Notes: generated from the letters alone by a model not told the origin. A stretch of 64,000 nucleotides of DNA from Candidatus Omnitrophota bacterium (GCA_043732705.1 JAYTHE010000032.1:66005-130004); one strand, 5' to 3'. Shown: positions 19,992 through 54,294, counted from the stretch's first letter. Made by a program: numbers and translations.

Positions 19992-20029
19992 ATACTAAAA
20001 GACCGAGATTCATTCTCGGTCTTTTAGTA
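19991..20029 (+). terminator. hairpin/terminator downstream of tRNA-Pro
   Basis: atactaaaagaccgag-attcatt-ctcggtcttttagtat, 16-bp stem. Confidence 0.5.
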
Positions 20030-36658: not shown

Positions 36659-36674
36659 CTATGGGGTTAAACCC
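36659..36674 (-). promoter_or_regulatory. GGGG-N4-CCCC-ATA regulon motif copy (upstream of the BON gene)
   Basis: Minus strand GGGTTTAACCCCATAG, ~62 nt upstream of the BON start. Confidence 0.5.
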
Positions 36675-36783
36675 TATTGCAACCTTTTATTGAACGTAAG
36701 GGTTTGCCTGATAGGCCGATGTAGGCAATCGGCTTATAGTTACATGGATTTGATCCAAAGAATTATCGCAGCCGCCGGGCAGG

Positions 36784-37557
36784 GTGTTTATGCCGAAAAA
36801 GTTAAAACAGATGATTCTCAAGCATAAAGTTGTGAGTAGAAGACTCGCAACAAGAGAACAGCATTACAGTCACTTGCTGGAGCAGTCGCGCTACAGTGAA
36901 AAGCATTTTCGCCGCCTGGCCCGCCAGATTCTTCTGACGCAAGAAAAGGAACGTAAACAAATCAGCCGCGAGCTTCACGATGGAATCGCCCAGACTTTGG
37001 CGGGAATCAATCTTTATCTTGAGACGCTCAAGGTCAAGACCGCCGTCAGTGGCAATGGCTCCACAAAAAAAATCACGCTTGCCCAAAGTCTTGTCGAAAA
37101 ATCGTTGAAAATCGTGCTGGGCTTTGCTCGTGACCTGCGTCCGACGCTTTTGGATGATTTGGGGCTTTTCCCTGCTTTGCAAGCGCATATGAAAAGCTTT
37201 ACAAAACGCACCGGTATTTTGATCCGTTTTAAAACTTTTCAAGGTGAGGAGAAATTAAACAGTGTTAAACGCACGGTGCTTTACCGCGTTGCGCAAGCCA
37301 CTCTTGAAAATGTCGCACGGCATGCGCAGGCGAGCCTTGTGAAAATTAAAATTCAAAAAATAACCCGCTTCATTCAAATGGAAATCAAAGATAACGGAAA
37401 ATCTTTTCGAGTTAAGAACTTGTCACCGGTTACAAAAAGTAATCGGTTGAGTTTGCATGGTATGCGTGAGTATGTTGAGATGGTAGGGGGGCGCTTTACC
37501 GTAAAATCTATAATGGGCATCGGCACAACGGTTAAGGTTGAGGTTCCATTCCTATGA
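36784..37557 (+). CDS. cytoplasmic sensor histidine kinase, HisKA_3 (NarX/DegS-type) + HATPase_c
   Basis: Phospho-His box ELHDGIAQTL; no TM segments; coiled-coil N-terminus. Confidence 0.8.
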   Translation: MFMPKKLKQMILKHKVVSRRLATREQHYSHLLEQSRYSEKHFRRLARQILLTQEKERKQISRELHDGIAQTLAGINLYLETLKVKTAVSGNGSTKKITLAQSLVEKSLKIVLGFARDLRPTLLDDLGLFPALQAHMKSFTKRTGILIRFKTFQGEEKLNSVKRTVLYRVAQATLENVARHAQASLVKIKIQKITRFIQMEIKDNGKSFRVKNLSPVTKSNRLSLHGMREYVEMVGGRFTVKSIMGIGTTVKVEVPFL

Positions 37558-38243
37558 AAAAAAACACCGCGAGGACCACAGTTTTGCTTGTGGATGATCA
37601 CGCTGTGCTCCGTGAAGGGCTTCGGATGGTACTGGAAGCCGAAAAAGATATGCACGTCATCGCCGAGGCTCGCAGCGGGCGTGAGGCTGTTGAGTTTGTT
37701 AAACAGTTTCGGCCCGATGTGGTTGTCATGGATATTGCCATGCCGCTTCTCAATGGATTTGAAGCCGCCAGGCAGATCATAAAATCTTTTTCCGCCACAA
37801 GAATTTTGATTCTTTCGGCCTATAGTGATGATGAGTACATTGATCAAATGATCGCGATCGGTGTCGCCGGGTACTTGATCAAACAAAGCTCCGCGCAGAT
37901 TTTATCTAAAGCAATACGAGAGGTCAGCAAAGGCCGCTTGTTTTTCAGCGCGGAAATTGCAAAGCGCCTCGAAGAGAAAAATAAAAAGTCATTGGGGCGC
38001 AATGGAGTCCTTAAAAATAAAAATATACGATTGAGTTCGCGCGAAGCCGAAGTCCTTCAGCTGATTGCTGAAGGCAAAGCGAATAAGGAAATTGCTTCAG
38101 AATTAACGATTAGTATTAAAACAGTCGAGAAGCACCGCCAACATCTGATGGAAAAACTCAATATTCATGATACCGCCGGGCTGACTCGCCACGCTATTTC
38201 TGCGGGAGTGATTGAAAGTAGTATTCAGTTGCCCGTTCGTTAG
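37554..38243 (+). CDS. NarL/LuxR-family response regulator (REC + HTH)
   Basis: Receiver Asp in VVVMDIAMP; C-terminal LSSREAEVLQLIAEGKANKEIASELTISIKTVEKH. Confidence 0.85.
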   Translation: MKKNTARTTVLLVDDHAVLREGLRMVLEAEKDMHVIAEARSGREAVEFVKQFRPDVVVMDIAMPLLNGFEAARQIIKSFSATRILILSAYSDDEYIDQMIAIGVAGYLIKQSSAQILSKAIREVSKGRLFFSAEIAKRLEEKNKKSLGRNGVLKNKNIRLSSREAEVLQLIAEGKANKEIASELTISIKTVEKHRQHLMEKLNIHDTAGLTRHAISAGVIESSIQLPVR

Positions 38244-38288
38244 GCTCCTGCGGAAAGATGATTGTTTTCAACTCATTAGGGGAATACC

Positions 38289-38303
38289 CCATATTGTCTG
38301 TCT
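38289..38303 (+). promoter_or_regulatory. GGGG-N4-CCCC-ATA regulon motif copy
   Basis: GGGGAATACCCCATA, then 21 nt, then TACGAT; ~55 nt upstream of 38358. Confidence 0.5.
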
Positions 38304-38357: not shown

Positions 38358-38699
38358 ATGAATAATCCTGAAGCAAAGACACCGCTCGCCACCAAAGCAT
38401 CGCAATCAAATTTAAAGGATGTCGAAAAAGTTAACCGCAACGAAAAAGAAGCCGGATCTCGAGAAGATTGGGAGGGGGGCGCATCACGTCCAATGGACGC
38501 GATAGTTCCGGAGGAAAAACTTCCCAATAGCAGCTCCGCAAAAAATTTACAGGCTCAGGCTGAAAGTGTTCCTAAAACACCGAGTGGTGATAATGGGCCG
38601 CCCGAGAATCTGCAATCTCTCCCAACTCAAGATACGCATACAGTGAGTCCGGAACAAGAAGTTGAAAATAAGCCCAAGCGGCAGCGACTTCCTTTTTAA
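38358..38699 (+). CDS. intrinsically disordered hydrophilic protein, SREDWEGG / GPPxNLQSLPTQxTH family, paralog 1
   Basis: Low-complexity, highly charged; shares two blocks with 50468..51049. Confidence 0.55.
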   Translation: MNNPEAKTPLATKASQSNLKDVEKVNRNEKEAGSREDWEGGASRPMDAIVPEEKLPNSSSAKNLQAQAESVPKTPSGDNGPPENLQSLPTQDTHTVSPEQEVENKPKRQRLPF

Positions 38700-38732
38700 G
38701 CGGTAATTTTCTCCGATCTAACCTTGCCCTGA

Positions 38733-38747
38733 GGGTAATACCCCATA
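38733..38747 (+). promoter_or_regulatory. GGGG-N4-CCCC-ATA regulon motif copy
   Basis: GGGTAATACCCCATA, then 22 nt, then TATGAT; upstream of the lipoprotein gene at 38822. Confidence 0.5.
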
Positions 38748-38821
38748 GTTTCATTGATGGACTTAGTCCTATGATCAACTCTGACAACAAAAGCCTGCCC
38801 ACAGGCAGGCAGGAGGAAAAT

Positions 38822-39058
38822 ATGAAAAAATTATTAGTCGCTTCTATGATTTTATCGGTGGCTTTGGGACTGTCGGCGTGTAGTGGTGCGTTTTGGGGCG
38901 GTGCGGGCGGCGGAACAGCTGCGGCAGGCGCGGGCTATGAAGTTAACGCAAAATTAAAGATGGACCAGCTGAAGAAAGATCTCGCTGCAGGTAAGATCAA
39001 TCAGGCTGAATACGATATTCGCGTCGATCAAATTAAAAAAATGTCGCTGATTTATTAA
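38822..39058 (+). CDS. small lipoprotein with Gly/Ala-rich linker and SHOCT-like C-terminal motif, paralog 1
   Basis: Lipobox LSAC; ...LKKDLAAGKINQAEYDIRVDQIKKM; RBS caggagg. Confidence 0.55.
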   Translation: MKKLLVASMILSVALGLSACSGAFWGGAGGGTAAAGAGYEVNAKLKMDQLKKDLAAGKINQAEYDIRVDQIKKMSLIY

Positions 39059-39080
39059 TCGGCATTTAAAAGGGAGCGTC

Positions 39081-39206
39081 ATGAGAAAAATTCAGTGGGG
39101 TTTAATCCTTTTTTGTGTCTTAGGCCTATTTGCAGGTTGTCATAGTGGAATTATGAAAGGTGCCGGATCTGATATGTCCAGAATGGGAGATAGCTTACAG
39201 AAATAA
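39081..39206 (+). CDS. entericidin (EcnA/EcnB)-like small lipoprotein, 41 aa
   Basis: MRKIQWGLILFCVLGLFAGCHSGIMKGAGSDMSRMGDSLQK; lipobox plus the G-x-G-x-D-hxxxG entericidin pattern; below the ORF cutoff. Confidence 0.7.
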   Translation: MRKIQWGLILFCVLGLFAGCHSGIMKGAGSDMSRMGDSLQK

Positions 39207-39236
39207 AACAGTCAACTGTTTAAGGTAAAGGCTTTT

Positions 39237-39641
39237 ATGAAAAAAAATGTGGGCTTGTGGATTGATCACCGTGAGGCAGTGATGGTTTTTGCTTCACCTG
39301 AAGGGGAAGTCATCAAGAAAATCAGTTCTGCCGCTGAGAAGCATGCCGGCAGGATTGATGGTGAGCGCTCAACTGCGCCTTATGAGTCACAGCTGGTGCA
39401 CGCAGATGACAGCCAACAACGTGCTCTCACGGGACATTTAAACCATTACTATGATGAAGTGATTGCCGACATTCATGACGCAGAATCCATTCTGATATTT
39501 GGCCCCGGCGAAGCAAAAACCGAGCTTAAAAATAGAATGCAGCTTTCAAAAGCGAATTGTTCCGCGGTTATTGTTGAAGCTGCAGACAAGATGACTGACC
39601 CGCAAATTGCGGCAAAAGTTTGGGACTATTTTAAAATTTAA
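39237..39641 (+). CDS. eRF1-like 'host attachment protein' (baeRF-type) family protein
   Basis: Pattern GLWIDHREAVMVF ... ILIFGPGEAKTEL ... VIVEAADKMTDPQIA resembles PF10116-like proteins. Confidence 0.4.
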   Translation: MKKNVGLWIDHREAVMVFASPEGEVIKKISSAAEKHAGRIDGERSTAPYESQLVHADDSQQRALTGHLNHYYDEVIADIHDAESILIFGPGEAKTELKNRMQLSKANCSAVIVEAADKMTDPQIAAKVWDYFKI

Positions 39642-40191
39642 CGATAAAGCATCAAAATTCTTGCCGTATTAAAGTGAGTATAAAATTTATTTAGCGATGT
39701 CATAAATTTCTGACATATTTCTATCATTTCAGACATAGCGCCCGCATTTTAAAGCCTTCCCCTCGAAAGAAACAGGCATGAAGATTGCCTGGTTTTCAAA
39801 TAATATATCCTGAAAGTTTGAGGGAGGCTTTATGCTCGGAAAATCAACTATGGGTATAAAGTTTTCAGCGAAAAAGGTAGGTCTTTGGGCCAAGTTTAAA
39901 AAATGCGAACTGAAGCGGTTAAGGGCGTGGATAGATTAGTATTTTAAACGCAAAGCGGGCTGACCCGCCCGCCTGAAATCGAAAAAATTTAGAATGAGAT
40001 TGATTCGTCGCGGAGATGATCGAGGAGACAAAGAAGATCTGCTCTTAGAACGCTTAAAAAAATTCCTTGTGAGTACGGTTGGCAAAAGAGATTTAAATCT
40101 TAGGTGTTCTCCCAGTTTGTCTTTGTAAGGGGAAATAAATCTATTTTTTTTATTTGCTTTGCCTATATTATAGTCACGCGAAGATAATTTT

Positions 40192-40222
40192 TTGACGTCA
40201 AATGCGATTGAGTTAACTCAAT
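40192..40222 (+). promoter_or_regulatory. two adjacent palindromes (TTGACGTCAA; ATTGAGTTAACTCAAT) 20 nt upstream of the CHASE3 kinase
   Basis: A perfect 10-bp and a perfect 16-bp palindrome immediately 5' of the RBS/GTG start. Confidence 0.4.
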
Positions 40223-40241
40223 TCCGAAGAAGGAAAGACTC

Positions 40242-42545
40242 GTGTTAACCACTTTCTATTCTCAAATTTTACGCTTAATCCGTAAATGGATTTCAGGAAG
40301 AGAGTTTTTTCTTTCGGCCGTAATTTTGGTTTCTCTGCTTTCGGTGAATTCATGGCTTTCTTTCCGCAATATCAATCTCGTGCGCCATGACGCCGAATTA
40401 GTTATTCATACCCAAAAAGTAATTAACGCTCTTGAGGCGGCGCTTTCATTTGCAAAAGATGCGGAGACCGGGCAGCGAGGCTATCTTCTTACCGGCAAAC
40501 AATCCTATCTCGAACCGTATAATCATGCGGTACCGGCCATTTATGGGCAATTGGCGCTGCTGAAACAATTGACCCGTGATAATGCATCGCAGCAGAAACG
40601 CCTGGATGAATTTAAAGCGCGCATTGGATTAAGGTTGAAAGTGCTGGATGAAGTTATCAATGCACAAGAAGGTTTACGCTATCAGTTTACCCGTAAGACT
40701 TTATTGGGCGACCGCGGCAAAGTCGAGATGGACGCCTTGCGCCGGCAGGCCGCTACCATTGAAAAGGTAGAACGCGATTTGTTAGAGCAAAGAACGGAAC
40801 GCTCCACTGTCTCATACCACATCGCGCTTTTCACCAGTTTTCTGTCAAGTTCGATCGGGTTAGGCTTGCTTGTCGCGTTTCTTTTTCTTTTAAGGAAACA
40901 TTTAATTTCTAAAGACAAAGATATGGCCGCGATTTTTGAGCAGCACGAAAGATTTCGAATCACAATCGGAAGTATCGGCGATGCGGTTCTGACCACAGAT
41001 ACACAGGGCCGCGTTACATACTTAAATGAAATTGCGCAAAAATTGACAGGCTGGAAAGAAAAAGATGCTTTCGGGAAGCCTCTAGAGGTAGTTCTTCACA
41101 TTTTAAATGAAAGTTCCCGCCGTATTGTTGAAAGCCCCGCATATCAGGCGTTAAGAGAAGGCACCATTGTCGGGCTGGCTTATGGGACGCTTCTGATCGC
41201 GAAGGACGGAAAAGAAATTCAAATCGAGGACAGTGCCGCACCGATCCGCAATCAGCAAGGTGATGTTGTGGGGGTTGTGCTCGTGTTCCGGGATGTAACT
41301 GATCGTAAAAAATCAGAAGCTGTTTTACTCGAAAGCGAAAAGCGTTATCGACAGTTAATTCAAGGTCTGCCCGCAGCTGTTTATACCTGTGATGCTGACG
41401 GCTACATTATGCTTTATAACCCCGCAGCGGCTGTGCTTTGGGGCCGGGAACCCGAGTTGGGGAAAGAGCTGTGGTGCGGCTCGCATCGAATCTATAGGTC
41501 AAACGGAGAACCTCTCCCGTTAGAGCAATGCCCCATGGCCGTTGTTTTGGAAGGAAAAGAGCCGAAGCGCGGTCAGGAAATTATTATTGAAAGGCCCGAT
41601 GGTACGCGGCGGAATGTTCTACCTTATCCCCAGGCGATTCTTAATAAAGACGGAATTCTCATGGGTGCGATTAACATGCTTGTGGATATCACCGAGCGTA
41701 AAAAAGCAGAGCAAGATTTAATCCGCACGGCCAAAGAGCTTGCAGCTTCAAACACTGAATTAGAAAAAGCGAATATACAGCTTAAGAAATCGACGCATGA
41801 ACTTGAACTGGCAAATATAAGCCTAAAAAAACTCGATGAGATGAAAACGAATTTTATTGCGATCGCATCGCATGAACTCAAGACCCCTCTGACCGCGATG
41901 AAAGGTTTTTTAAGTTTAGTCATCGAAGGCGCGAACGGAAAGCTGCGAGCCGCACAAAAGGAAAGTTTACTTTTTGTAAAAGAAGGCAGTGATCGAATGC
42001 ACCGGCTGATTGACAGTCTATTGAATCTATCGAAAATGGAGCTTGGGCAAATGCCGATGAAAATGAGCGAGAAGGTAAGTGTTAAGAGAATTTTGAGCGA
42101 GACCGTGCGAACATTTCATAATTTAGCCGAAAAGAAGAGCATTTCAATTCAAGAGGAAGTCGAAAGTGATTTAAAAGAAGTTTGTGGCGACGAAGACCGT
42201 TTACGGGAAGTGTTTGATAATCTTGTTTCCAATGCTCTGAAATATACTCCACGTGGCGGAACTATTTGGATTCGAGCGAAAAATAATTCAAAAAAAGTAG
42301 AAATTAAAATTGAAGATACCGGAATTGGAATGAGAAAAGAAGATCTTTGTAAAATATTTGAACCTTTCCAGCACTTGAGGCGCAGCGGCTTGGAAGGCGA
42401 AGAAAGCACCGGATTGGGTTTAGCGTTAGTCAGAAAAATTATCGATGCGCATGGCGGAGAAGTTCAAGTTGAAAGCGTGCTCGGAAAAGGTTCGATTTTT
42501 ATGGTGCTGCTTCCGCAAAAAAATTTGATGGAGGCGGCGCGATGA
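40242..42545 (+). CDS. sensor histidine kinase: CHASE3 - TM - 2x PAS - HisKA - HATPase_c
   Basis: GTG start; CHASE3-like N-terminus, PAS blocks, H-box IASHELKTPLTAMKG, G-boxes. Confidence 0.85.
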   Translation: MLTTFYSQILRLIRKWISGREFFLSAVILVSLLSVNSWLSFRNINLVRHDAELVIHTQKVINALEAALSFAKDAETGQRGYLLTGKQSYLEPYNHAVPAIYGQLALLKQLTRDNASQQKRLDEFKARIGLRLKVLDEVINAQEGLRYQFTRKTLLGDRGKVEMDALRRQAATIEKVERDLLEQRTERSTVSYHIALFTSFLSSSIGLGLLVAFLFLLRKHLISKDKDMAAIFEQHERFRITIGSIGDAVLTTDTQGRVTYLNEIAQKLTGWKEKDAFGKPLEVVLHILNESSRRIVESPAYQALREGTIVGLAYGTLLIAKDGKEIQIEDSAAPIRNQQGDVVGVVLVFRDVTDRKKSEAVLLESEKRYRQLIQGLPAAVYTCDADGYIMLYNPAAAVLWGREPELGKELWCGSHRIYRSNGEPLPLEQCPMAVVLEGKEPKRGQEIIIERPDGTRRNVLPYPQAILNKDGILMGAINMLVDITERKKAEQDLIRTAKELAASNTELEKANIQLKKSTHELELANISLKKLDEMKTNFIAIASHELKTPLTAMKGFLSLVIEGANGKLRAAQKESLLFVKEGSDRMHRLIDSLLNLSKMELGQMPMKMSEKVSVKRILSETVRTFHNLAEKKSISIQEEVESDLKEVCGDEDRLREVFDNLVSNALKYTPRGGTIWIRAKNNSKKVEIKIEDTGIGMRKEDLCKIFEPFQHLRRSGLEGEESTGLGLALVRKIIDAHGGEVQVESVLGKGSIFMVLLPQKNLMEAAR

Positions 42546-42925
42546 AAAAGCATATTCTTATTGTCGAAGATGACTTTGCGATCGGCAAGCTCCTTCAAAT
42601 GTCTTTTACGCATGCAGGATTTACCGTTTCTTTGGCGCGCGATGAAGCCTCTTTTTGCGAGTTGGCGAAAAATACATCCCCCGATTTTATTTTGCTTGAT
42701 CTGATGATTAACAATCGAAAAAGCATCGAATTTTATGAGGCATTAGTTGAAGAAGGGTTGAATCCGCATATCCCGGTGATTGTTTTGACAGCGTCTGTCC
42801 AGGGATTGGTTTCTGTGAAAGGCCCCTCCGGAAAATCTTATCGGGCCTTCGGCAAGCCTTTCGAAACTAAAAACCTGATTGAATTAGTGGGTTCTTCTTT
42901 TTCAGTCAAGCCTTCGAAAGCCTAA
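42542..42925 (+). CDS. single-domain response regulator (receiver only), paralog family member
   Basis: ILIVEDDF...ILLDLMI...; ATGA overlap with the kinase. Confidence 0.75.
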   Translation: MKKHILIVEDDFAIGKLLQMSFTHAGFTVSLARDEASFCELAKNTSPDFILLDLMINNRKSIEFYEALVEEGLNPHIPVIVLTASVQGLVSVKGPSGKSYRAFGKPFETKNLIELVGSSFSVKPSKA

Positions 42926-43056
42926 AAAACCCGTGTAAAAGTGTCTCGTCTTTCGTACAGAATTCTTAAAAATCTGACACATTTCAGCCGCACAAAACAG
43001 CTCTTTTAAGAAATAATATTTTTGTTCCCAATAAGAAGCATGCGCAGTGGCCGAGC

Positions 43057-43072
43057 TGGCACTCCTGATGCT
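43057..43072 (+). promoter_or_regulatory. candidate sigma-54 promoter (TGGCAC-N5-ATGCT)
   Basis: cTGGCACtcctgATGCt, GG-N10-GC spacing correct; ~120 nt upstream of the ferritin-like gene. Confidence 0.4.
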
Positions 43073-43191
43073 ACTCTGATGTTGGGGTTTTCTCAAAGAA
43101 TGAGCTTCAGACGCTTGCCGATGGGGGCTAAAAATGAACAATGAAGATTGGGATTTAGAATAATTCAATTGAATATTATTCGAATTTTTAA

Positions 43192-43788
43192 ATGAAAAAG
43201 GAAAAAATGAAAAATAAAGGTTCTGATTTGGAGCAAAAATCAAAAAGCCGGTTTGTGATGGATGTAAAGGAAATCCGCCGCCGCGCCCGCAAACATGTCG
43301 AAGAAGGTGCTGTCACGGAAGGTTACGAAGGTGACCGCAAGACTATCTTAAAGCTGCTCAATGATGCGCTTGCGACCGAAATTATTTGTGTATTACGCTA
43401 CAAGCGCCATTATTTCATGGCGCAAGGCATTCATGCGAAACCGATTGCTGAAGAATTCCAGGAGCATGCCACTGAAGAACAGGCGCATGCCGACAGTATC
43501 GCGGAAAGAATTATGCAGCTGGGCGGTGAACCTGACCTGAATCCTGAAGGCTTGACTACCCGCAGCCACTCACAGTATGTGGAAGGCGAGTCTTTGCTTG
43601 ATATGGTTAAAGAAGATTTGGTTGCGGAAAGAATCGCGATTGATTCTTACAAAGAAATCATCGCCTATGTCGGCGGCAAAGACCCGACGACCCGCCGTCT
43701 TATGGAGGAAATTCTTTCGAAGGAAGAAGAACATGCGGATGATATGGCGGATATTTTGGCGGCCCTAGATCCGGCCAAAAAAATGTGA
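43192..43788 (+). CDS. bacterioferritin/ferritin-like di-iron protein
   Basis: Ferritin-like four-helix bundle with paired E..H ligand motifs (EIICVLRY...EEQAHADSIAERI). Confidence 0.65.
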   Translation: MKKEKMKNKGSDLEQKSKSRFVMDVKEIRRRARKHVEEGAVTEGYEGDRKTILKLLNDALATEIICVLRYKRHYFMAQGIHAKPIAEEFQEHATEEQAHADSIAERIMQLGGEPDLNPEGLTTRSHSQYVEGESLLDMVKEDLVAERIAIDSYKEIIAYVGGKDPTTRRLMEEILSKEEEHADDMADILAALDPAKKM

Positions 43789-43812
43789 CGGTAAAACGGT
43801 AAAGATTAATTT

Positions 43813-43998
43813 ATGGAATTGATTTTTGAGTGGATAGCGTGGTTTGCCTTGTTCTTGGGATGTATTTTTATTTTATGGAAACTGTACTTATTCACGACGT
43901 GGAACATTGAGAGAACTGTTTTTCTTGGCGGAATCGGCGCTTATCTGGGTTCGAAGTCAAAAAACGCGCGGAAGAAGCAAGCCGTGGCCGCGAAATGA
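43813..43998 (+). CDS. hypothetical small membrane protein (61 aa)
   Basis: Two hydrophobic helices; stop overlaps the GT4 start (ATGA). Confidence 0.3.
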   Translation: MELIFEWIAWFALFLGCIFILWKLYLFTTWNIERTVFLGGIGAYLGSKSKNARKKQAVAAK

Positions 43999-45266
43999 AA
44001 ATATTGATGGTGACGAACACCTATTTAAATGTGGTGGGTGGCCTTGAAAAATCAATCCAGTCTTTTACGCAAAAATTAAGAGAATTGGGACACAAGGTAT
44101 TGATCGCCGGTCCTGACTTTGTCGGCGAAGAAATCGGCGGCAGCAAGGGGGCTCATCCTTTAGCGGACAAATATGCGCCAGTGGTTTTTCCTTTTCGTGG
44201 GAAACTTGAAAAAATTATTGCTCAATTTAATCCTGATGTCATCCACGCCCACCATCCTTTTTTAATGGGAGAAATGGCTTTGCGCTTCTCGGCCTATTAC
44301 GCGCGGCCCGTTATTTTTACTTACCATATTATGTTCAATCAATACGCGCATTATTTACCGTCTGTGTCTTCGTGCCTTTCCGGAACTTTCTTGGTGGAAA
44401 TGGCTGCGGGATTTTGCAATCTTTCAACCCGGGTGATTGCGCCGAGCGAAAGCGTACGTAAAATTTTATGCGATCAAGGCGTTAAAAAACCAATTGATGT
44501 CGTTCCAACCGGAGTTGATATCGCAAAGTTTTCGCGCGGGAACCGTGAAAAAAAGAGAAGAGAACTTGGTTTATCAAAAGAATCGATTCTGCTCGGTTAT
44601 GTGGGGCGTCTCGCGCCCGAGAAAAACCTTGAATTTTTGACAGCTCAGGTTGCACAGTTAATGAACACAAATAAAAATGTTCACTTTCTTGTCGTTGGGA
44701 AAGGTCCTTCCGAAAAAGATTTGGAGAAAGCCTTTAGCCATATGGATATATTGCCGCGTCTTCACTTTTTGGGTGCGCTTCAAGGGCAGGATTTGGTGGA
44801 TTGCTACCATGCAATGGACGTGTTTGTGTTTGCGTCCAAAAGCGAAACTCAAGGTTTGGTTCTCTGCGAAGCGATGGCAGCGGGAGTGCCTGTGGTAGCT
44901 TTGGATGCGCCGGGAGTCCGTGAAGTTGTCAAGGATTTTGAAAATGGCCGGCTAATCTCCGGCGGACATGAAGAGGAGTTTCAATCCGCCTTGGTGTGGT
45001 GCGTGAGCCAGGAGGGCAGGAAGCTTATTCAGTTGAAACAAAACGCCCGGGAAACCGTCAACGCTTTCGGACTTGAAATTTGCGCGGTTCGCGCGCTGGA
45101 GACATATCGTTCAGCTATGCAAGATTATTCTTGTCTTAAAAATGCTCATAAAAACAGAGAGCTAAAGTTATGGCAGTGTTTTCGGATTGAATTGAAAATA
45201 GCGGGTAATTTTCTCCGCTCTTTTTTTCGTGCAGTGAGTAAGACGCTTTTTAAACAAGCAGCCTGA
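43995..45266 (+). CDS. GT4-family glycosyltransferase, paralog 1
   Basis: MKILMVTNTY..VGGLEKSIQ N-terminus; E-x7-E region ...FASKSETQGLVLCEAMAAGVPVVA. Confidence 0.8.
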   Translation: MKILMVTNTYLNVVGGLEKSIQSFTQKLRELGHKVLIAGPDFVGEEIGGSKGAHPLADKYAPVVFPFRGKLEKIIAQFNPDVIHAHHPFLMGEMALRFSAYYARPVIFTYHIMFNQYAHYLPSVSSCLSGTFLVEMAAGFCNLSTRVIAPSESVRKILCDQGVKKPIDVVPTGVDIAKFSRGNREKKRRELGLSKESILLGYVGRLAPEKNLEFLTAQVAQLMNTNKNVHFLVVGKGPSEKDLEKAFSHMDILPRLHFLGALQGQDLVDCYHAMDVFVFASKSETQGLVLCEAMAAGVPVVALDAPGVREVVKDFENGRLISGGHEEEFQSALVWCVSQEGRKLIQLKQNARETVNAFGLEICAVRALETYRSAMQDYSCLKNAHKNRELKLWQCFRIELKIAGNFLRSFFRAVSKTLFKQAA

Positions 45267-45276
45267 GGAGGGCATA

Positions 45277-45402
45277 ATGAAAAGGTTTATGTTGGTTTTA
45301 ATCATGATTCTTTTTGTGGGAGCATTCAATGGTTGTCATAGCGGAACGATGCGTGGAGTCGGTTCGGACATTTCGAGGGTCGGAGACCACTTGCAGAAAT
45401 AA
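45277..45402 (+). CDS. entericidin-like small lipoprotein, paralog 2 (41 aa)
   Basis: MKRFMLVLIMILFVGAFNGCHSGTMRGVGSDISRVGDHLQK; RBS gaggaggg. Confidence 0.7.
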   Translation: MKRFMLVLIMILFVGAFNGCHSGTMRGVGSDISRVGDHLQK

Positions 45403-45484
45403 ATGAACAGATTTATTGCCTGCAAGCTAAACGCAAGAGTACCTTTTATTTCTTTTTAGGAAACAGTACAATATGTTTTAACTT

Positions 45485-45895
45485 ATGGATCAAAAGAAAA
45501 GTGCTCCCGATGCGGGAGTGGTTAAACCCAGAGTTCTTGTCGTGGATGACGAGCAGTCCATGCGGCGTCTTTTGTGCCATACTCTCTCTCTCTCCGGCTT
45601 TAATATTTCAACTGCAGCTAATGCGGCAGAATTTCGTGAGCAAGTTTTTATTCAAAAACCAGAGGTTATTATTCTCGATATTTTGCTGGGTGACCATAAC
45701 GGTCCCGAAGTTTATTTGGAACTGCTGGATGAGGGCTTGGATTCAAATATTCCCGTCATTTTTCTTTCGGCACTGATTGAAAAAAGGTGGATGCCCAAAT
45801 CGATTGAGAGTAACCCGCGCCATGCATTTATCAGCAAGCCGTTTGAGTACCAAGAACTAATACTCAAATTGCGAGAGTTTGCGGCGCTTAAATAA
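45485..45895 (+). CDS. single-domain response regulator (receiver only), paralog family member
   Basis: VLVVDDEQ...IILDILLGDHNGPEVY...IPVIFLSAL. Confidence 0.75.
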   Translation: MDQKKSAPDAGVVKPRVLVVDDEQSMRRLLCHTLSLSGFNISTAANAAEFREQVFIQKPEVIILDILLGDHNGPEVYLELLDEGLDSNIPVIFLSALIEKRWMPKSIESNPRHAFISKPFEYQELILKLREFAALK

Positions 45896-48779
45896 TAAGT
45901 GGGGGATTGCTTTTACCGTGCCAAAGCAGAGTTCTTTTTTAAATCGTCTCCGTTTGAGTAACCTTCTTATTCCTCGGAAGCTGGGCCTGATTGTGGCTAT
46001 TTTTTCGCTTATCATTTGCGCCCTGCTTTCAGTCAATCTCTTTGGAATGGGGGTTCTCTCCGATGTTCGTGCTTATGTTGCCGGTGAAGGAATATGGTCA
46101 AAATCACAAAAAGAAGCCGTTTATGCATTGATGCGGTATGTGATTTTTTATCAGGAAAAAGATTATCAGAATTATTTGGACCATCTCAAAGTTCCTCTGG
46201 GGGACCGTAAAGCCTTAATCGAGCTTTCAAAGCCCAACCCTGACTTTCTCGTTGTGGATGCCGGCTTTATTGAAGGTCAAAATCATCCGCGTGATGTGCG
46301 TGGCATGGGGTATTTATTTAAGCGTTTTTATTTTATTTCTTATATTCGTGATGCCATTCAAGCCTGGAAAGAAGCGGATCAGCTGCTGAATGAATTGATT
46401 CGAGCGGGAGAAGAAGTCAGGAAATATGTCCGGTCCGGAAATGTCACTGAAGAGAAAACGACGCAGTTTTTAGAACGCATAGATAAAATCAATAATACCT
46501 TGGCGCCGCTTGAAGATTCATTTTCTTATCGGTTAGGGGAAGGTGCACGGTGGCTTGTCAGCCTGTTGGTTTGTGTGATGTTCGGGGTTACAGGTATACT
46601 GTTGATTCTAGGAATTATTATCGCAAATTTTATTGCGCGCCAGCTGATCCAGGAAATATACCGGCTTAGAAACGCGGCGGCCAAAATTGCCGAGGGGGAT
46701 TACAGTCAGCCGATAGAAAATCACACCTTGGATGAAGTCGGGGACCTTGCCCGGAGCTTTCAGCAAATGGCGGCTCAGCGACAACACGCGGAAAGAGTTA
46801 AAAATGAATTTTTTGCGACCGTTTCTCATGAACTTCGTACGCCCTTAACATTAGTGCTGACACCGCTTGAATCGCTTTTAATGGGCGAATATGGCCCGTT
46901 ATCGGAACCCGCGCAGCGGATTTTGGGAACGATGCACAATAACGCGATACGACTGCTTCAGATGGTGACCGGGCTGCTTGATTTCTCAAAATTTGAAGCC
47001 GGGCGGATGGAAGTTAAGCGTGAAGATACCGATATCATCGGGGTTACGCAGTCGATTCTCGATGATTTTACGGCCATTGTCAGCCAGAAAAAAATAAAAG
47101 TTCGGCTGAGCGCAAATCAGCCCTCTATTTCGGTTCTTATGGATCGTTATTTTTACGAGCGAATTTTATTTAATCTTCTTTCCAATGCGGTTAAATTTAC
47201 ACCCGAAGAAGGTGAAATTTCTGTTGCGCTTGAACTGCGCGGTGAATATTTGCGCTTGGTGGTTTGTGATACTGGCATTGGCATCTCGGAAGAAAATCAA
47301 AAAATCCTGTTTGAAAAATTTAAACAGCTTGAAGGCGCATCAACACGGCGCTTTGAAGGAACTGGCCTGGGGCTTGCTTTAGTCAAAGAATTTTCCGAAC
47401 TTCTTGGCGGACAGGTTTTGGTTCACAGCGAAGCCGGAAAAGGATCGACATTTACCGTGGAGTGTTTTGCCCCGGCCGCAGCGTCTGTGGCAAAGATCGA
47501 AACTGTGCGTCCCAAAAGAAAACTGGTTCAGCAATTTCCGGTGAATACGGAGTTATCACTCATTTCCGATTCAGTTGATAGGAAGGAATTACCCAAACTT
47601 CTGATTGCTGAAGATAATCCCGAGCTGGCGTTTTATTTGTCCGAGCAGATGCAGGATATTGCGCGCTTAAAAATCGCGAAAGACGGGGAAGAAGCATTGA
47701 AGCTTGCCGAAGAATGGCTGCCTGATCTTGTTCTTTCTGATGTCATGATGCCCAAATTAGACGGAATCGCCCTATGCCGGGCGATTAAAAGCCATCCGAA
47801 AATGGCTTACATTCCGGTTATTTTGCTGACCGCATTGACTTACCGGGATGCTCTTTTAAAAGGATGGGAAGCGGGCGCGGACGAGTATTTGTTTAAACCT
47901 TTTCACCCCACTGAACTTTTAACACGGGTTAAATCCGTGCTTGAAAATTGCAAAGAGCGCCGTGAAACACAAATTGCGCTTAAAGAGTCACACGACCAGC
48001 TTGAAGTCAAAGTCCGCGAGAGAACCGAGGAGCTTCTCGGGGCGAATGAGCGTTTAAAAGAGCTGGATGAATTAAAAACACAATTTATTTTGACCGCGTC
48101 GCATGAGCTCAGGACTCCGCTAACGTCGATTAAGGGCTATGTTGAAATGGTTTTGTACGGTGAGGCGGGCGCGCTCAATGACGAACAAAAAGAGTTTTTG
48201 GGATATGTCAAGGACTCCACCGACCGTTTGCAGCGTTTACTGCGCGAACTTTTGGATATTTCAAAAATAGAATCCGGCGGAGTAGCCATGCATCGGGAAT
48301 TTACTGATATGCGGATTTTAATTAAAGAAGAGCAGGCTCTTTTTAAAGCGCAGGCGCTGGATAAAAAAATTCAGATTCTGATGGATGTTGATCCGGAGTT
48401 AAAGTTTATTTTTTGTGATTCGGATAAAATTCGCGAGGTTTTGGATAATTTGCTCAGCAATGCCATAAAATATACACCCGCAAAAGGGCAAATTAAAATT
48501 TTCGCGCAAAACCAGGAGCATGGAATTTTAATTGGTGTTCAGGATAATGGCATTGGAATTAAAAAGAAAGACCACCGCCTGATTTTTGAACCTTTTCAAC
48601 ATTTGGGAAAGAATGGAACGAATGCCTCAGAGGAAAGTACGGGTTTGGGTTTAACGCTTGTTGAAAAAATTGTTGAAGCGCATGGCGGGCAAGTTCAGGT
48701 CCAAAGCGAAGAGGGTCAAGGCGCGCTTTTTACTGTAAACTTACCTTTCGATATGAATGAAAAAAAACAACCGGAGTAA
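45879..48779 (+). CDS. hybrid sensor kinase with two transmitter modules: sensor-TM-HAMP-HisKA-HATPase-REC-coiled coil-HisKA-HATPase
   Basis: Two H-boxes (ATVSHELRTPLT; LTASHELRTPLTSIKGY), two G-box sets, and an internal receiver (LLIAEDNPE...LVLSDVMMPKLDG). TTG/GTG start uncertain. Confidence 0.85.
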   Translation: MRRLNNKWGIAFTVPKQSSFLNRLRLSNLLIPRKLGLIVAIFSLIICALLSVNLFGMGVLSDVRAYVAGEGIWSKSQKEAVYALMRYVIFYQEKDYQNYLDHLKVPLGDRKALIELSKPNPDFLVVDAGFIEGQNHPRDVRGMGYLFKRFYFISYIRDAIQAWKEADQLLNELIRAGEEVRKYVRSGNVTEEKTTQFLERIDKINNTLAPLEDSFSYRLGEGARWLVSLLVCVMFGVTGILLILGIIIANFIARQLIQEIYRLRNAAAKIAEGDYSQPIENHTLDEVGDLARSFQQMAAQRQHAERVKNEFFATVSHELRTPLTLVLTPLESLLMGEYGPLSEPAQRILGTMHNNAIRLLQMVTGLLDFSKFEAGRMEVKREDTDIIGVTQSILDDFTAIVSQKKIKVRLSANQPSISVLMDRYFYERILFNLLSNAVKFTPEEGEISVALELRGEYLRLVVCDTGIGISEENQKILFEKFKQLEGASTRRFEGTGLGLALVKEFSELLGGQVLVHSEAGKGSTFTVECFAPAAASVAKIETVRPKRKLVQQFPVNTELSLISDSVDRKELPKLLIAEDNPELAFYLSEQMQDIARLKIAKDGEEALKLAEEWLPDLVLSDVMMPKLDGIALCRAIKSHPKMAYIPVILLTALTYRDALLKGWEAGADEYLFKPFHPTELLTRVKSVLENCKERRETQIALKESHDQLEVKVRERTEELLGANERLKELDELKTQFILTASHELRTPLTSIKGYVEMVLYGEAGALNDEQKEFLGYVKDSTDRLQRLLRELLDISKIESGGVAMHREFTDMRILIKEEQALFKAQALDKKIQILMDVDPELKFIFCDSDKIREVLDNLLSNAIKYTPAKGQIKIFAQNQEHGILIGVQDNGIGIKKKDHRLIFEPFQHLGKNGTNASEESTGLGLTLVEKIVEAHGGQVQVQSEEGQGALFTVNLPFDMNEKKQPE

Positions 48780-48790
48780 TCAATAAAGTT

Positions 48791-50149
48791 ATGAATAAAA
48801 CTGTTCTTGTTGTGGATGATGACAGTCGAATCGCGAATCTCATTTCGACTCGCTTAAAGAAGCAAGGATATTTGCCCGTGATTGTTGAAGATGGCAACAG
48901 CGCGATTGAATGGGTCGAGCGTAATGAAGCGGCATTGATTATGTTGGATGTCCGGCTTCCAGATATTAACGGTGTTGATGTGTTAAGACAAATCATCAAA
49001 AAGAAACCGGGTCTATTTGTAATTATGATTAGTGCGCATGCGGACGTTCAAAACGCGGTGGAATGTATCAAAATCGGAGCCACGGACTTTCTTGAAAAGC
49101 CGTTTGAATTTCCTACCTTTGACGCAAAAGTGAAGCAGATTTTTCAGCAGCTGGGATTAAAGGCCGAGGTTGCCGCTTTAAAACAGGAATTAGGAATTAC
49201 TTATAAAGATAAAAGTTTAATCGGAAAAAGCCCCGCGATGATTAAGGTTTTTCAATCGATTGGCATCGCGGCAAAAAGTGAAGCCAGTGTCTTGATTCAC
49301 GGAGAAAGCGGAACAGGAAAAGAGCTTGTTTCAAGAGCAATTCATTTTAACGGGACACAAAAACAGGGCCCTTTTATGGCGGTGAATTGCGGAGCCATTC
49401 CGGAAAACCTTCTTGAAAGTGAATTATTTGGACATGAGAAGGGATCTTTTACGGGCGCGGTAGGCCGTAAGCTGGGAAAATTCGAGGAAGCGCAAAACGG
49501 AACTATATTTTTAGATGAAATCGGGGAAATGCCACTGTCATTGCAGGTTAAATTGCTGCGGGTGCTGCAAGAGCGAGAAATCGTCCGCGTGGGCGGAACG
49601 GTCTCCATTCCCATTCATGCCCGCTTTATTACGGCGACAAACCGCGATTTAAAGAAAATGGTGCAAGAAGGGTTGTTCCGCGAAGATCTTTATTACCGGA
49701 TCAATGTATTTCCGATTCGTTTGCCGCCCTTACGCGAAAGAAAAGAGGATATTACAGATCTTTTCCGCCACTTCGTAAACCGGCATAGCGAAGGCAAAGC
49801 GTCGGTTAAGACAGATGAAGGCGCGTTAAGAAGACTGGAAGAGTATGACTGGCCCGGAAATATCCGCGAGCTAGAAAATTTTGTCGAACGTCTTTTGCTT
49901 TTATTGGGAGAAAAAAATCACATTACCGAAAAAGATATCGATGCTATGGATGGATTAAGCGATGCTCCTGCTTCAGAAAAAGCCGAAGCGCCTAAAGAAA
50001 GAGCTCAGGTGTTGGGCGAGACGGAGCGGGCAATTCTTGAAAAGGCATTGCAAGACGCCAATGGTAATATTGCTAAGGCTTCTAAGCTTGTTCAGATGAG
50101 CCGTGATTCTTTTTATCGGAAGATGAAAAAATATTCAATTGCCCGGTAA
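48791..50149 (+). CDS. sigma-54-dependent response regulator (NtrC family: REC - AAA+ - Fis-type HTH)
   Basis: GESGTGKE Walker A, GSFTGA (GAFTGA-type) motif, C-terminal HTH. Confidence 0.9.
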   Translation: MNKTVLVVDDDSRIANLISTRLKKQGYLPVIVEDGNSAIEWVERNEAALIMLDVRLPDINGVDVLRQIIKKKPGLFVIMISAHADVQNAVECIKIGATDFLEKPFEFPTFDAKVKQIFQQLGLKAEVAALKQELGITYKDKSLIGKSPAMIKVFQSIGIAAKSEASVLIHGESGTGKELVSRAIHFNGTQKQGPFMAVNCGAIPENLLESELFGHEKGSFTGAVGRKLGKFEEAQNGTIFLDEIGEMPLSLQVKLLRVLQEREIVRVGGTVSIPIHARFITATNRDLKKMVQEGLFREDLYYRINVFPIRLPPLRERKEDITDLFRHFVNRHSEGKASVKTDEGALRRLEEYDWPGNIRELENFVERLLLLLGEKNHITEKDIDAMDGLSDAPASEKAEAPKERAQVLGETERAILEKALQDANGNIAKASKLVQMSRDSFYRKMKKYSIAR

Positions 50150-50467
50150 GTCTTATAACAAGAACGGCTGTTATCTCCATTTGTGCTTAAAACGCGCTAT
50201 GCGATGCGTTAAAGTCCGCTATTGCTAAGCTGGATGGGGCCGCGCTGAATTTTCCAGCCTGCATGGCTTCCCAAGGCTTTTCCTTCCTAGTCCGACAATT
50301 GCAAAAAACCGTCAGAGCCCTCTGACACTATTTTCTTAATTGAGATTTTTTCAAAAGACGTTTTTTTCTTAAGTTGTTTATCTGTATGAAGATATGACTT
50401 TGGCATGCGCCGTGGATATACAGAGTCAACGGAATGAAATACGTGAGGGAAAAAGGAGGGCTTGTTT

Positions 50468-51049
50468 ATGGAAAAGAGTCATTACGAACAAATCAAAAAT
50501 AATAATAATTTCAATTCATCGACGAGGGGATCCAAACGCAGACCACCGATGCAAAGTGAGTTTGATGAGCCTAAATTATCCTATTGCGATGTCCCTCAGC
50601 CGGCTGTAAGTGCTTGCGGGATAGCTCAATCGACAAATGCGCAAGCCTGTGATCAAACAGCTTATTCACGCTCGCAAGGAACTTCTGATCAGACTTTTAA
50701 AAATAAAAAAGATCAGAAAGACGCTGTGTCCCGTGAAGACTGGGAAGGCGGCGGGTCGCGTCCCGCGGCAGCATTCTCAGACGAAATGTTTCCCCATAAT
50801 AACCCTGCAAATGACTTACAGACACAAGCTGACAGTGTTCCAAAAGCTAAATATGGCGACTTTGGGCCGCCTAAAAATCTTCAATCGCTTCCGACCCAAA
50901 ATACGCATGAGCTGGCTGCGGAAGAGGAGCTTGATGATGAAGTGCGTGTAAAAGCAGCGAAGAACTCCGGAGAAGAAGTCCATTGGAACGAAAGAGCGGA
51001 CCGCCTTAAAAAGCGGGGAGAAGATTATAGAGGGCGTCGCAGTGCTTAG
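50468..51049 (+). CDS. intrinsically disordered hydrophilic protein, SREDWEGG / GPPKNLQSLPTQNTH family, paralog 2
   Basis: Shares SREDWEGGGSRP and GPPKNLQSLPTQNTH blocks with 38358..38699; RBS aaaggaggg. Confidence 0.55.
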   Translation: MEKSHYEQIKNNNNFNSSTRGSKRRPPMQSEFDEPKLSYCDVPQPAVSACGIAQSTNAQACDQTAYSRSQGTSDQTFKNKKDQKDAVSREDWEGGGSRPAAAFSDEMFPHNNPANDLQTQADSVPKAKYGDFGPPKNLQSLPTQNTHELAAEEELDDEVRVKAAKNSGEEVHWNERADRLKKRGEDYRGRRSA

Positions 51050-51155: not shown

Positions 51156-51545
51156 ATGAATGAACGGATTTTAGTCATCGAAAACAGAGGGCCTAGCTAT
51201 CAAATTTTGAAGGATAAGTTGGAAGAAAAAGGCTGCGTTGTTTTAACGGCTCAAAACGAACACGAGTTTTGGGGGCATGCTTGCGAGACGAATGTTGAAT
51301 TAGTTCTTTTTGATATTTGCCTCAAGAACCGGCTCAGTTCCGAGGTTTACGCGGCAATTTTAAACTTTCAACAAAGCCGAAAAATCCCGGTCATTTTTAA
51401 GACCGGGATGACTGACCAGGACGAACACGGAGCCATGCTGTATGACGAGAACTATATTTTTTTTCCGGAACCGGTTGGTTTTGAGCGTCTCTATGTAGAA
51501 ATACAAAAACTACTTAATCAAAGACAGCTGGCCCATGCTGCCTAA
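51156..51545 (+). CDS. receiver-like single-domain protein with partly degenerate acidic pocket (EN in place of DD)
   Basis: MNERILVIENRGPS...LVLFDICL...IPVIFKTG; RBS aaggagg; paralogous to the other stand-alone receivers. Confidence 0.55.
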   Translation: MNERILVIENRGPSYQILKDKLEEKGCVVLTAQNEHEFWGHACETNVELVLFDICLKNRLSSEVYAAILNFQQSRKIPVIFKTGMTDQDEHGAMLYDENYIFFPEPVGFERLYVEIQKLLNQRQLAHAA

Positions 51546-51557: not shown

Positions 51558-52043
51558 ATGAAAAAAATTTTAGTGGTGGATGATGAATGGGCCATTCTTG
51601 AACTTTTACGGATCAAACTTACAAAAAAGGGGTTTGATGTGATTACCGCGAGCAATGAAAAAGAGTTTTTTGAACAGGTTTTTGAAAATAAACCGGATTT
51701 GATTATTTTGGATATTTGGCTCGGGAACGAAGGCGGCGGAACGAAGCTTTATGACGTGGCGCTTGACGGAGGGCTTGATCCGGATGTTCCGGTTATTTTT
51801 ATGAGCGCACTTGTAGAAGAAGGTACGCCGCCCAAAAGAGCGTCCAAGGGAGGGCGTTTTGCTCTGTACGGCAAACCATTCGATTTTAATTTTTTGTTGG
51901 AAGACATTTATTGTTTAACGGGGGTTGAGTCGGGGTTGAATTCGGCGGAAGTTGACAGAGATAGGATTGGGAAGGCTGCAAATTTAGGGAAATATAAAAG
52001 TGGGTCGAATGGCGGGCCAGCCCCGCAGCTAAAAACCGGATAA
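51558..52043 (+). CDS. single-domain response regulator (receiver only) with Gly-rich C-terminal tail
   Basis: ILVVDDEW...IILDIWLGNEGGGTKLY...VPVIFMSAL. Confidence 0.75.
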   Translation: MKKILVVDDEWAILELLRIKLTKKGFDVITASNEKEFFEQVFENKPDLIILDIWLGNEGGGTKLYDVALDGGLDPDVPVIFMSALVEEGTPPKRASKGGRFALYGKPFDFNFLLEDIYCLTGVESGLNSAEVDRDRIGKAANLGKYKSGSNGGPAPQLKTG

Positions 52044-52411: not shown

Positions 52412-52645
52412 ATGAAAACTTACGCATCTTTAGGGCTTTTGATCGCAGCGATTGCTTTTTCAGGGTGCAGCGGAGCTTTTTGGGGTGGAACGGCAGCCGG
52501 AGCAGCAGGCGGAGCGGCCGGTTATGAAGTCAATTCCAAAGTGCAAATGGACCGCTTGAATAAGGATCTTGCCGCGGGACGTATCAATCAACAGGAATAT
52601 GACATTCGCAAAGATCAAATTCAACGGGGTTCGGTTTTCTATTAA
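52412..52645 (+). CDS. small lipoprotein with Gly/Ala linker and SHOCT-like C-terminal motif, paralog 2
   Basis: Lipobox FSGC; ...LNKDLAAGRINQQEYDIRKDQIQ; paralog of 38822..39058. Confidence 0.55.
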   Translation: MKTYASLGLLIAAIAFSGCSGAFWGGTAAGAAGGAAGYEVNSKVQMDRLNKDLAAGRINQQEYDIRKDQIQRGSVFY

Positions 52646-52898: not shown

Positions 52899-53240
52899 AT
52901 GCAGACACACACTAAGGTAAATGAGAAAAAAGACAAAATTCATGATGCTCTTGAGCTGCTTAATGATGCGGCAAAAGAGAAAAAGGATGAAGTTTTTGAA
53001 GTGATCAACACTAAGTATGAACATGTCCGGGATATGTTCGCAGGCGCTGCCGAAAACGGACAGGCCATTGCAAAGGAAGCCAAGAAGCAGCTTTCAAAAA
53101 CGCTTCAAACGGAAAAGATAAAAATTAAACAAGTCGCGGGCGATCTGAATAAGAAAGTTCACAGAAGCCCATGGGCCTATTTAGGCGGCGCGGCATTAAG
53201 TTCTTTTGTCGTTGGAATTTTACTGGCGCGCAAAAAATGA
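52899..53240 (+). CDS. DUF883 (ElaB/YqjD/YgaM) membrane-anchored stress protein, paralog 1
   Basis: C-terminal PWAYLGGAALSSFVVGILLARKK matches the ElaB tail anchor. Confidence 0.75.
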   Translation: MQTHTKVNEKKDKIHDALELLNDAAKEKKDEVFEVINTKYEHVRDMFAGAAENGQAIAKEAKKQLSKTLQTEKIKIKQVAGDLNKKVHRSPWAYLGGAALSSFVVGILLARKK

Positions 53241-53952: not shown

Positions 53953-54294
53953 ATGACAACTCATTCGAAAGAAAATGAAAAGAAAGACAAAATTCACGAG
54001 GCATTGGAATTGTTGAATGAAGCCGCCAAAGAAAAAAAAGACGAGGTGTATGGCGTGATTAATTCCAAATATGAGCATCTTCGTGAAATGTTTGCCGGCG
54101 CGGTTGAGACAGGGCAGGACTTTGCGGACGACGCGAAGAAAAATATTTCCAAAACACTTTCAGCGGAAGAGAAGAAATTGAAACAAATCGCCGCTCAATG
54201 GGATAAGGAAGTTCGTAAAAATCCTTGGACTTATATCGGCGGAGCGGCGCTTGGCTCGCTTTGTTTGGGGCTTTTACTGGGCCGGAAGAAATAG
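53953..54294 (+). CDS. DUF883 (ElaB/YqjD) membrane-anchored stress protein, paralog 2
   Basis: ~60% identical to 52899..53240; PWTYIGGAALGSLCLGLLLGRKK tail. Confidence 0.75.
   Translation: MTTHSKENEKKDKIHEALELLNEAAKEKKDEVYGVINSKYEHLREMFAGAVETGQDFADDAKKNISKTLSAEEKKLKQIAAQWDKEVRKNPWTYIGGAALGSLCLGLLLGRKK

Follow-up and report, generated by a model that had tools for sequence, protein, structure and literature searches.

A 64,000-nt stretch of DNA from a Candidatus Omnitrophota bacterium (GCA_043732705.1 JAYTHE010000032.1:66005-130004; hereafter the window) carries two related genes, which we call paralogs A and B, each of which lies downstream of a response-regulator gene of a different type, and the locus raises the question of what these two proteins are, what controls them and what they do. 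A and B are old, anciently diverged paralogs and both are coding. With a rough probability of 0.45, they would be stress-induced disordered proteins that dock through short conserved motifs, each paralog being the output of a different two-component system. A sequence-only reading of the window had pointed to both open reading frames (ORFs) and to two near-identical blocks that they share; the ORFs are present on the + strand at the positions given below, both blocks are real, and BLASTP and a family alignment add a third shared block.

38358..38699, + strand: paralog A, 113 aa, predicted disordered, with all three conserved segments present
50468..51049, + strand: paralog B, 193 aa, N-terminal tail longer than that of A, C-terminus basic
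nt 38457-38492, + strand: motif 1 of A (aa 34-45), SREDWEGGASRP
nt 50729-50764, + strand: motif 1 of B (aa 88-99), SREDWEGGGSRP
nt ~38544-38576, + strand: mid block of A, the third segment common to A and B, between motifs 1 and 2
nt 38586-38639, + strand: motif 2 of A (aa 77-94), GDNGPPENLQSLPTQDTH
nt 50855-50908, + strand: motif 2 of B (aa 130-147), GDFGPPKNLQSLPTQNTH

The two proteins are 47% identical over 102 aa (BLASTP, E 7e-29), and the consensus of the shared segments is S(R/Q)EDWEGGxSRP for motif 1, (N/D)LQxQA(E/D)SVPK for the mid block and GDxGPPxNLQSLPTQ(D/N)TH for motif 2. Paralog A starts at ATG 38358, preceded by AGAGGA; the likeliest start of B is ATG 50468, 9 nt after GGAGG, while the mechanical ORF call begins at TTG 50462. 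A database copy (P0008) that begins MEKSHYEQ agrees with the start of B at ATG 50468. The C-terminus of B reads RRSA, and B-type orthologs end in RRTA or RRIA. Synonymous differences between A and B occur within the conserved blocks, and in every pair of seven family genes the proportion of synonymous differences (pS, 0.59-0.85, saturated) far exceeds that of nonsynonymous differences (pN, 0.25-0.52; Nei-Gojobori). This in-frame excess of pS over pN indicates that the similarity of A and B is the result of purifying selection on protein, and not of chance or of a DNA or RNA element. Both ORFs are unannotated and short, their sequence is of low complexity, and the database copies come mostly from short contigs, as might be expected of chance ORFs, of a leader or regulatory RNA, or of the precursors of secreted or modified peptides. 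Such a non-functional origin is very improbable in the face of the pS and pN values, the good Shine-Dalgarno sequences of both genes and the conservation of the motifs in more than 20 proteins despite diverged DNA; there is also no Rfam match in the A/B region, no signal peptide or hydrophobic stretch in the proteins, and no peptide-modifying enzyme was found nearby. A six-frame motif scan found no third family copy in the window.

Both proteins are predicted to be cytoplasmic and intrinsically disordered, with short conserved linear segments set in fast-evolving charged linkers. In agreement with the sequence-only reading, they are very hydrophilic, with grand averages of hydropathy (GRAVY) of -1.28 for A and -1.32 for B, and the Uversky charge/hydropathy boundary puts both of them on the disordered side, with a charged fraction of ~0.3. 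Both are net acidic (pI values of 5.2 and 5.9), and their longest hydrophobic run is 3-4 residues. AlphaFold2 (AF2), run with the family alignment, gave a pLDDT of 63 and a pTM of 0.17, with a single 7-residue helix at residues 64-70. The conservation profile confines the conserved positions to the three blocks, and the fast evolution of the linkers is seen in the B orthologs of the window and of locus L005, which are 51% identical over 65 aa only, against 87% for the neighboring NtrC-type genes. The low pTM, the charge/hydropathy balance, the block-only conservation and the existence of relatives with a single motif are all consistent with a disordered protein that carries short linear motifs.

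Whether such proteins deserve the label hydrophilin, which the sequence-only reading had used in the form 'hydrophilin/LEA-like' (LEA, late embryogenesis abundant), depends on composition and homology as well as on disorder. The hydrophilin definition, as excerpted in PMC7448490 (Garay-Arroyo 2000), asks for a hydrophilicity index >1.0, a Gly content >6% and accumulation under water deficit or osmotic stress. The hydrophilicity index of the window proteins is ~1.3, so this part of the label stands; their Gly contents, 4.4% for A and 5.7% for B, are too low for a hydrophilin in the strict sense, although three relatives reach 7.0% (P0016), 9.6% (P0017) and 6.9% (P0018). The LEA part of the label finds no homology behind it, as A and B have no match at E<=1 to Pfam LEA_1-6, Dehydrin, KGG or CsbD. 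In being small, cytoplasmic, hydrophilic and predicted disordered, A and B resemble hydrophilins and general-stress proteins such as E. coli YciG/YmdF (KGG-repeat) and YjbJ/CsbD and B. subtilis GsiB; they differ from the KGG, CsbD and LEA proteins in lacking homology to them and in carrying unique, unrepeated linear motifs instead of repeats.

The family, which the sequence-only reading had been unable to place, is an undescribed one: A and B have no match in Pfam (E<=1), NCBIfam, PADLOC, PHROGs or PDB sequences, and the strings EDWEGG and NLQSLPTQ were not found in the full-text papers searched. The negative PADLOC and PHROGs results argue against a link to defense systems or phages. Seven matches were present among 5.8 billion clustered proteins, and a profile search with HMMER, run exhaustively over 1.84 billion representatives, returned 13 at E<=1e-3, of which 12 are credible; P0014 (2561 aa, seven matched stretches) was rejected as a relative, being a repetitive junk ORF with a chance LLSNLQSLPTS. 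A profile centered on motif 1 adds six proteins of 55-84 aa (P0019-P0024), and a scan of metagenome contigs adds one fragment only, at a contig edge. All relatives with a named source come from Omnitrophota metagenome-assembled genomes (MAGs), namely those at L005 and L007, which belong to the same MAG (GCA_043718225.1), and P0023, which carries the NCBI name Omnitrophota. The window is moreover syntenic with the Omnitrophota contig JAYSWD010000129 (L005). GFS_12873 and the BUSI22 assembly, which point to glacier-fed streams, carry relatives as well. On these matches the family seems to be lineage-restricted, so far essentially to Candidatus Omnitrophota MAGs alone. The profile searches and disorder predictions proposed in the sequence-only reading have found conserved relatives in Omnitrophota, matched no characterized family and indicated disorder.

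Within the family the conserved segments behave as modules. Many relatives (P0013, P0016, P0017, P0019-P0024 and an ORF at L006) carry motif 1 alone, and P0011 and P0015 carry motif 2 alone; P0012 has both on a short linker, with the mid block absent. The L005 ortholog of B (P0016) keeps motif 1 and the RRxA C-terminus and has lost motif 2. P0018 keeps the pattern W-x-x-G-x-x-x-P with the charge reversed (RKKWKDGPVNP), and in P0007 the Trp of motif 1 is replaced by Asn. Readings of the segments as sortase (LPxTG), clamp-binding (QLxLF) or SSB-tail motifs (the C-terminal LPF of A) were rejected, the residues being a misfit or unconserved in orthologs. The arrangement is reminiscent of plant dehydrins (LEA group 2), in which K, Y, S and F segments are likewise combined, lost and kept independently along a disordered chain; A and B differ from these in being unrelated in sequence, bacterial and lineage-restricted. 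Motif 1, rich in Gly and Pro, would also hardly form an amphipathic helix in the manner of the dehydrin K-segment, and only the mid block is modeled as a short helix.

Three A-type relatives (P0003, P0005 and P0011) carry an additional C-terminal C-x2-C-x12-H-x4-H finger, modeled as beta-beta-alpha, which is absent from A and B. For comparison, zinc fingers of the C2H2 type combine the spacing C-x2-4-C-x12-H-x3-5-H with a beta-beta-alpha fold. The finger has no significant match (Foldseek E>2; Pfam zf-Di19 E 0.019, below its cutoff), and a word-indexed search with the finger extension alone found nothing and also missed the parent protein itself. A further relative, P0024 (84 aa, from an ENA contig), has an N-terminus, KIQDALDLLNDAAQEKK, that resembles the N-termini of the ElaB-like proteins of the window and is fused directly to a motif 1, APSAEDWEGGGSRP; this is a chimera of natural origin or else an artefact of assembly. 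Both features, together with the photolyase, LexA-like, Dps-like and ElaB-like genes that adjoin family loci, would be consistent with nucleic-acid or ribosome binders that have a role in dormancy or in protection from damage, comparable to Dsup, HPF or YqjD, with the motifs docking onto the ribosome, RNA polymerase or the nucleoid. We consider this doubtful, as the zinc-finger matches are not significant and the finger is missing from the window proteins, A and B are net acidic and have no recognizable nucleic-acid-binding motif, and the P0024 fusion is seen on one short contig only.

What controls the two genes can be approached from their immediate surroundings. As the sequence-only reading had noted, A follows a NarL-type and B an NtrC-type regulator gene. 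In each case a kinase gene lies further upstream:

36784..37557, + strand: HisKA_3 histidine kinase (Pfam), upstream of the NarL-type gene
37554..38243, + strand: NarL-type regulator (Response_reg+GerE, Pfam), 114-nt gap to A
45879..48779, + strand: hybrid histidine kinase, upstream of the NtrC-type gene
48791..50149, + strand: NtrC-type sigma-54 activator (Response_reg+Sigma54_activat+HTH_8, Pfam), 318-nt gap to B
51156..51545 and 51558..52043, + strand: two single-domain receiver genes after B (Pfam)

The link to response regulators that this arrangement suggests has substance. For B it recurs as the order kinase, NtrC-type activator, family gene and two further genes in the window, L005, L008 and L011/L012, with a sigma-54-like promoter in all four lineages. 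In the window and L008, Pfam identifies the two genes after B as receivers, and in L005 their sequence is receiver-like; the same positions of L011 hold genes for 129 and 192 aa with no Pfam match on record. Further downstream, B-type loci encode small membrane proteins, lipoproteins, DUF1328, ElaB-like proteins, in some cases superoxide dismutase, and ferritin; L011 has superoxide dismutase, DUF1328 and ferritin. For A, adjacency to a NarL-type gene is not conserved: a histidine kinase lies upstream of the A-type gene in L002, and L001 and L007 show a C-type context in which the family gene is followed by GATase1-like and photolyase genes. What the A-type genes of the window and L002 have in common is the downstream order of family gene, Gly-rich SHOCT-like lipoprotein gene and a gene for a 134/154-aa protein of an unknown family. 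Single contexts with a LexA-like ORF (L006) and a PRC-barrel protein (L010) were assigned by inspection.

The DNA upstream of B contains elements conserved in L005, L008 and L011:

50290..50326, + strand: candidate upstream activating sequence (UAS, enhancer) of the NtrC-type activator, ~90-110 nt ahead of the -24 element
50290-50297 and 50311-50326, + strand: parts of the UAS, half-site GTCCGACA and palindrome GTCAGA-GCCC-TCTGAC, conserved in L005, L008 and L011
50400..50420, + strand: sigma-54-like -24/-12 element, TTGGCATGCGCCGTGGATATA, ~50 nt before the start of B, conserved in L005, L008 and L011

In an alignment of the window with L005 and L008, TTGGCAY-N5-GTGGATATA is kept, as are GTCYGAYA and GTCNGA-N4-TCNGAC, with a compensatory change in L008; L011 has the equivalents TTGGCAT-N5-TTGGACATAT and GTCAGA-N4-TAAGAC at matching distances. 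The four-locus consensus is therefore TTGGCAY-N5-(G/T)TGGA for the promoter and GTCNGA-N4-TNNGAC for the palindrome, within intergenic DNA that has otherwise diverged. Canonical sigma-54 promoters have GG at -24 and GC at -12 in the arrangement GG-N10-GC (TGGCAC-N5-TTGCW). Since the promoter of B has GG instead of GC at -12, we refer to it as sigma-54-like. An adjacent activator of the cognate type and a putative site in the form of an upstream inverted repeat are both present in the four loci, and with the TTGGCAY at -24, the correct spacing and the inverted repeat ~100 nt upstream of the promoter, the layout resembles modules of sigma-54 and an NtrC-type bacterial enhancer-binding protein (bEBP) such as glnAp2 and pspA, from which it differs in the -12 dinucleotide. 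No terminator-like site was found between B and the two receiver genes, so B and the receivers are probably co-transcribed. Elsewhere in the window, a canonical sigma-54-type element, TGGCACTCCTGATGCT (TGGCAC-N5-ATGCT), occurs at 43057..43072, and a Dps/bacterioferritin-like gene (43192..43788) begins ~120 nt further on; L005:1223 carries a matching site, TGGCATCCCTGTTGCT, without the ferritin-like gene.

A different sequence, which we call element A, precedes paralog A. It is palindromic, with the consensus GGG(G/T)-AAY-ACCCYATA, and lies in sense orientation 65-115 nt before start codons. Its sites in the window are:

36660..36678, + strand: element A before the HisKA_3/NarL operon, TATGGGGTTAAACCCTATT, with the perfect palindrome GGGTT-A-AACCC, divergent to a BON gene
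38277..38294, + strand: element A before A, TAGGGGAATACCCCATAT, ~65-80 nt before the start, a candidate operator or promoter
38731..38748, + strand: element A before the lipoprotein gene 38822..39058, GAGGGTAATACCCCATAG, with the same arrangement in L002
53840..53857, + strand: element A before the second ElaB-like gene (53953..54294), GGGGTAAATGCCCCATAT, ~100 nt upstream, conserved in L005 (11181)

Element A recurs ahead of the A-type and C-type family genes of L001, L002 and L007. That this palindrome also stands before the operon of the NarL-type regulator itself points to a regulon under autoregulation. Element A may alternatively be an alternative-sigma promoter and not an operator; no -35 box was conserved at the distance required for either a sigma-B-type (GTTT-N12-14-GGGTAT) or a sigma-32-type (TTGAAA-N13-14-CCCCATNT) promoter. 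We presume some resemblance of element A to the NarL heptamer (TACYYMT) and to the DosR box, and do not use it as evidence. The HisKA_3 kinase of this operon is only ~255 aa long, and no sensor or transmembrane segment was obvious on inspection, pointing to a soluble kinase that depends on some further input.

The abundance of signaling genes around A and B could also be read in another way, in which a two-component system induces a disordered protein whose motifs bind a receiver or kinase, such as the two receivers encoded after B, and so tune or cross-link signaling, as with PmrD, SafA, MzrA and the Ira anti-adaptors. Both window paralogs directly follow response-regulator genes, and in four lineages the B-type gene is placed between the NtrC-type activator and the two downstream genes (receivers in the window and L008, receiver-like in L005, no Pfam match in L011). 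The first receiver after B (51156..51545) also looks degenerate on inspection, the usual DD and K being missing (EN for DD, PEP for KP). Kinases and orphan receivers abound in the region, and short, near-invariant motifs along a disordered chain are a usual sign of specific protein docking. Like the known connectors (PmrD, SafA, MzrA, IraP/IraM/IraD), A and B are small, encoded beside a two-component system and probably induced by it, with B flanked by receivers. They have no homology to these proteins, and the known connectors are folded or membrane-anchored and not long disordered chains. The same motifs moreover occur at loci without nearby two-component genes, namely L001 and L007 (GATase1-like/photolyase), L006 (LexA-like), L010 (PRC-barrel) and L013, so that the partner is unlikely to be a locus-specific regulator, and a role as connector or feedback modulator seems to us unlikely on balance. 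Within 10 kb, this part of the window has four single-domain receiver genes (42542..42925, 45485..45895, 51156..51545 and 51558..52043), of which at least three are clearly paralogous, with a common ...PVIF(L/M)SAL... region.

The case for stress-induced proteins draws on the remaining neighbors. The stress reading proposed from the sequence is supported by the surroundings in the window, where A and B are encoded among genes for OsmY-like (a triple-BON protein), ElaB-like, Dps-like and OsmB-like lipoprotein products. Genes downstream of the paralogs include:

38822..39058, + strand: Gly-rich SHOCT-like lipoprotein, downstream of A; the same protein follows P0003 in L002
39237..39641, + strand: 134-aa protein of unassigned family, downstream of A; 62% identical to L002:2731-3195
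52899..53240 and 53953..54294: two ElaB-like genes (NCBIfam ElaB, E 1.5e-6 and 5.8e-6, below the curated cutoff)

Two Dps/bacterioferritin-like proteins and GT4 glycosyltransferases are also encoded in the neighborhood. The set presumably resembles general and osmotic stress regulons, and we take it to mirror the RpoS osmotic and stationary-phase regulon of E. coli. Unlike general-stress proteins, A and B appear to be controlled by two-component systems and sigma-54 and not by a general-stress sigma factor.

Taken together, these observations are best accommodated by the following scheme. The coding status, the paralogy, the predicted disorder, the modular motifs, the synteny and the conserved upstream elements stand as results; the pairing of regulators with elements, the induction by stress and the biochemical activity are inferred. 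B would open an operon (B, two receivers and further genes) under a sigma-54-type promoter, with the adjacent NtrC-type activator binding the palindrome upstream. In the simplest model for A, the NarL-type regulator would bind element A, autoregulate its own operon and co-induce A together with the lipoprotein and ElaB-like genes. Once made, A and B, which are encoded in a cluster of stress-protection genes, would act as stress-induced hydrophilic disordered proteins, and their invariant segments, chiefly EDWEGGxSRP, may dock onto one or more conserved cellular partners, which would bring them nearer to the K, Y and S segments of dehydrins than to a nonspecific shield.

Several points weigh against this scheme. 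The -12 dinucleotide upstream of B is GG in all four lineages, with TTGGCAY at -24 and the spacing conserved, and the palindrome at 50311-50326 can also be read, in the window only, as the terminator of the NtrC-type gene. The enrichment of element A in the window (five matches against 0.92 expected, with none of 300 Markov simulations reaching five) is in part circular, because the pattern was defined after the sites had been seen, and we take its CCCCATAT core to resemble a sigma-32-type -10 element. There is no NarL-type gene adjacent to the family genes in L001, L002 and L007, so the assignment of element A to the NarL-type regulator rests on one locus and the autoregulation-like site. The Gly content of both window proteins is under the hydrophilin threshold, and motifs as strictly conserved as these would fit a protective role no better than a specific regulatory interaction. 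In a bolder version, which we regard as unlikely, the near-invariant EDWEGGxSRP and GPPKNLQSLPTQ(D/N)TH would serve to dock onto a conserved cellular machine or onto receiver domains, and the family would be a new class of bacterial, two-component-controlled disordered adaptors built on short linear motifs, whose paralogs deliver the same signal under different inputs (sigma-54/NtrC for B, NarL-type for A).

Some further features of the window deserve mention. The lipoprotein encoded downstream of A (38822..39058) and one encoded downstream of B (52412..52645) are paralogous (61% over 69 aa) and are also present in L005; in both, the lipobox Cys is followed by a Gly/Ala-rich stretch, and the C-terminus is weakly SHOCT-like. 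The two ElaB-like proteins are tail-anchored and paralogous as well (65% identity), with element A upstream of the second only. The 134-aa protein (39237..39641) has no match in Pfam, NCBIfam, PDB, PADLOC or PHROGs, and its GPGEAK motif presumably recalls the release-factor-like 'host attachment' proteins. A 771-aa protein (55563..57878), with no Pfam or NCBIfam match at the thresholds used, is syntenic in L005 (12857..15172) and is followed by genes for a GT4 glycosyltransferase and a phosphodiesterase/endonuclease-family protein. The sole Rfam or ARAGORN match in the 64-kb window is a tRNA-Pro (TGG) at 19917..19993.

The general impact of these findings is modest, since the family is narrow, current concepts are unchallenged and small stress-associated disordered proteins are a familiar kind. 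If the stress-induced docking reading of A and B is true, an unrelated, motif-built family would join the short list of bacterial stress-induced disordered proteins, and a phylum known almost solely through metagenomes would gain two candidate regulons with explicit cis-elements. The conserved motifs, which are short, could then help to identify the partner and show how these nano-sized bacteria withstand cold, UV or osmotic stress.

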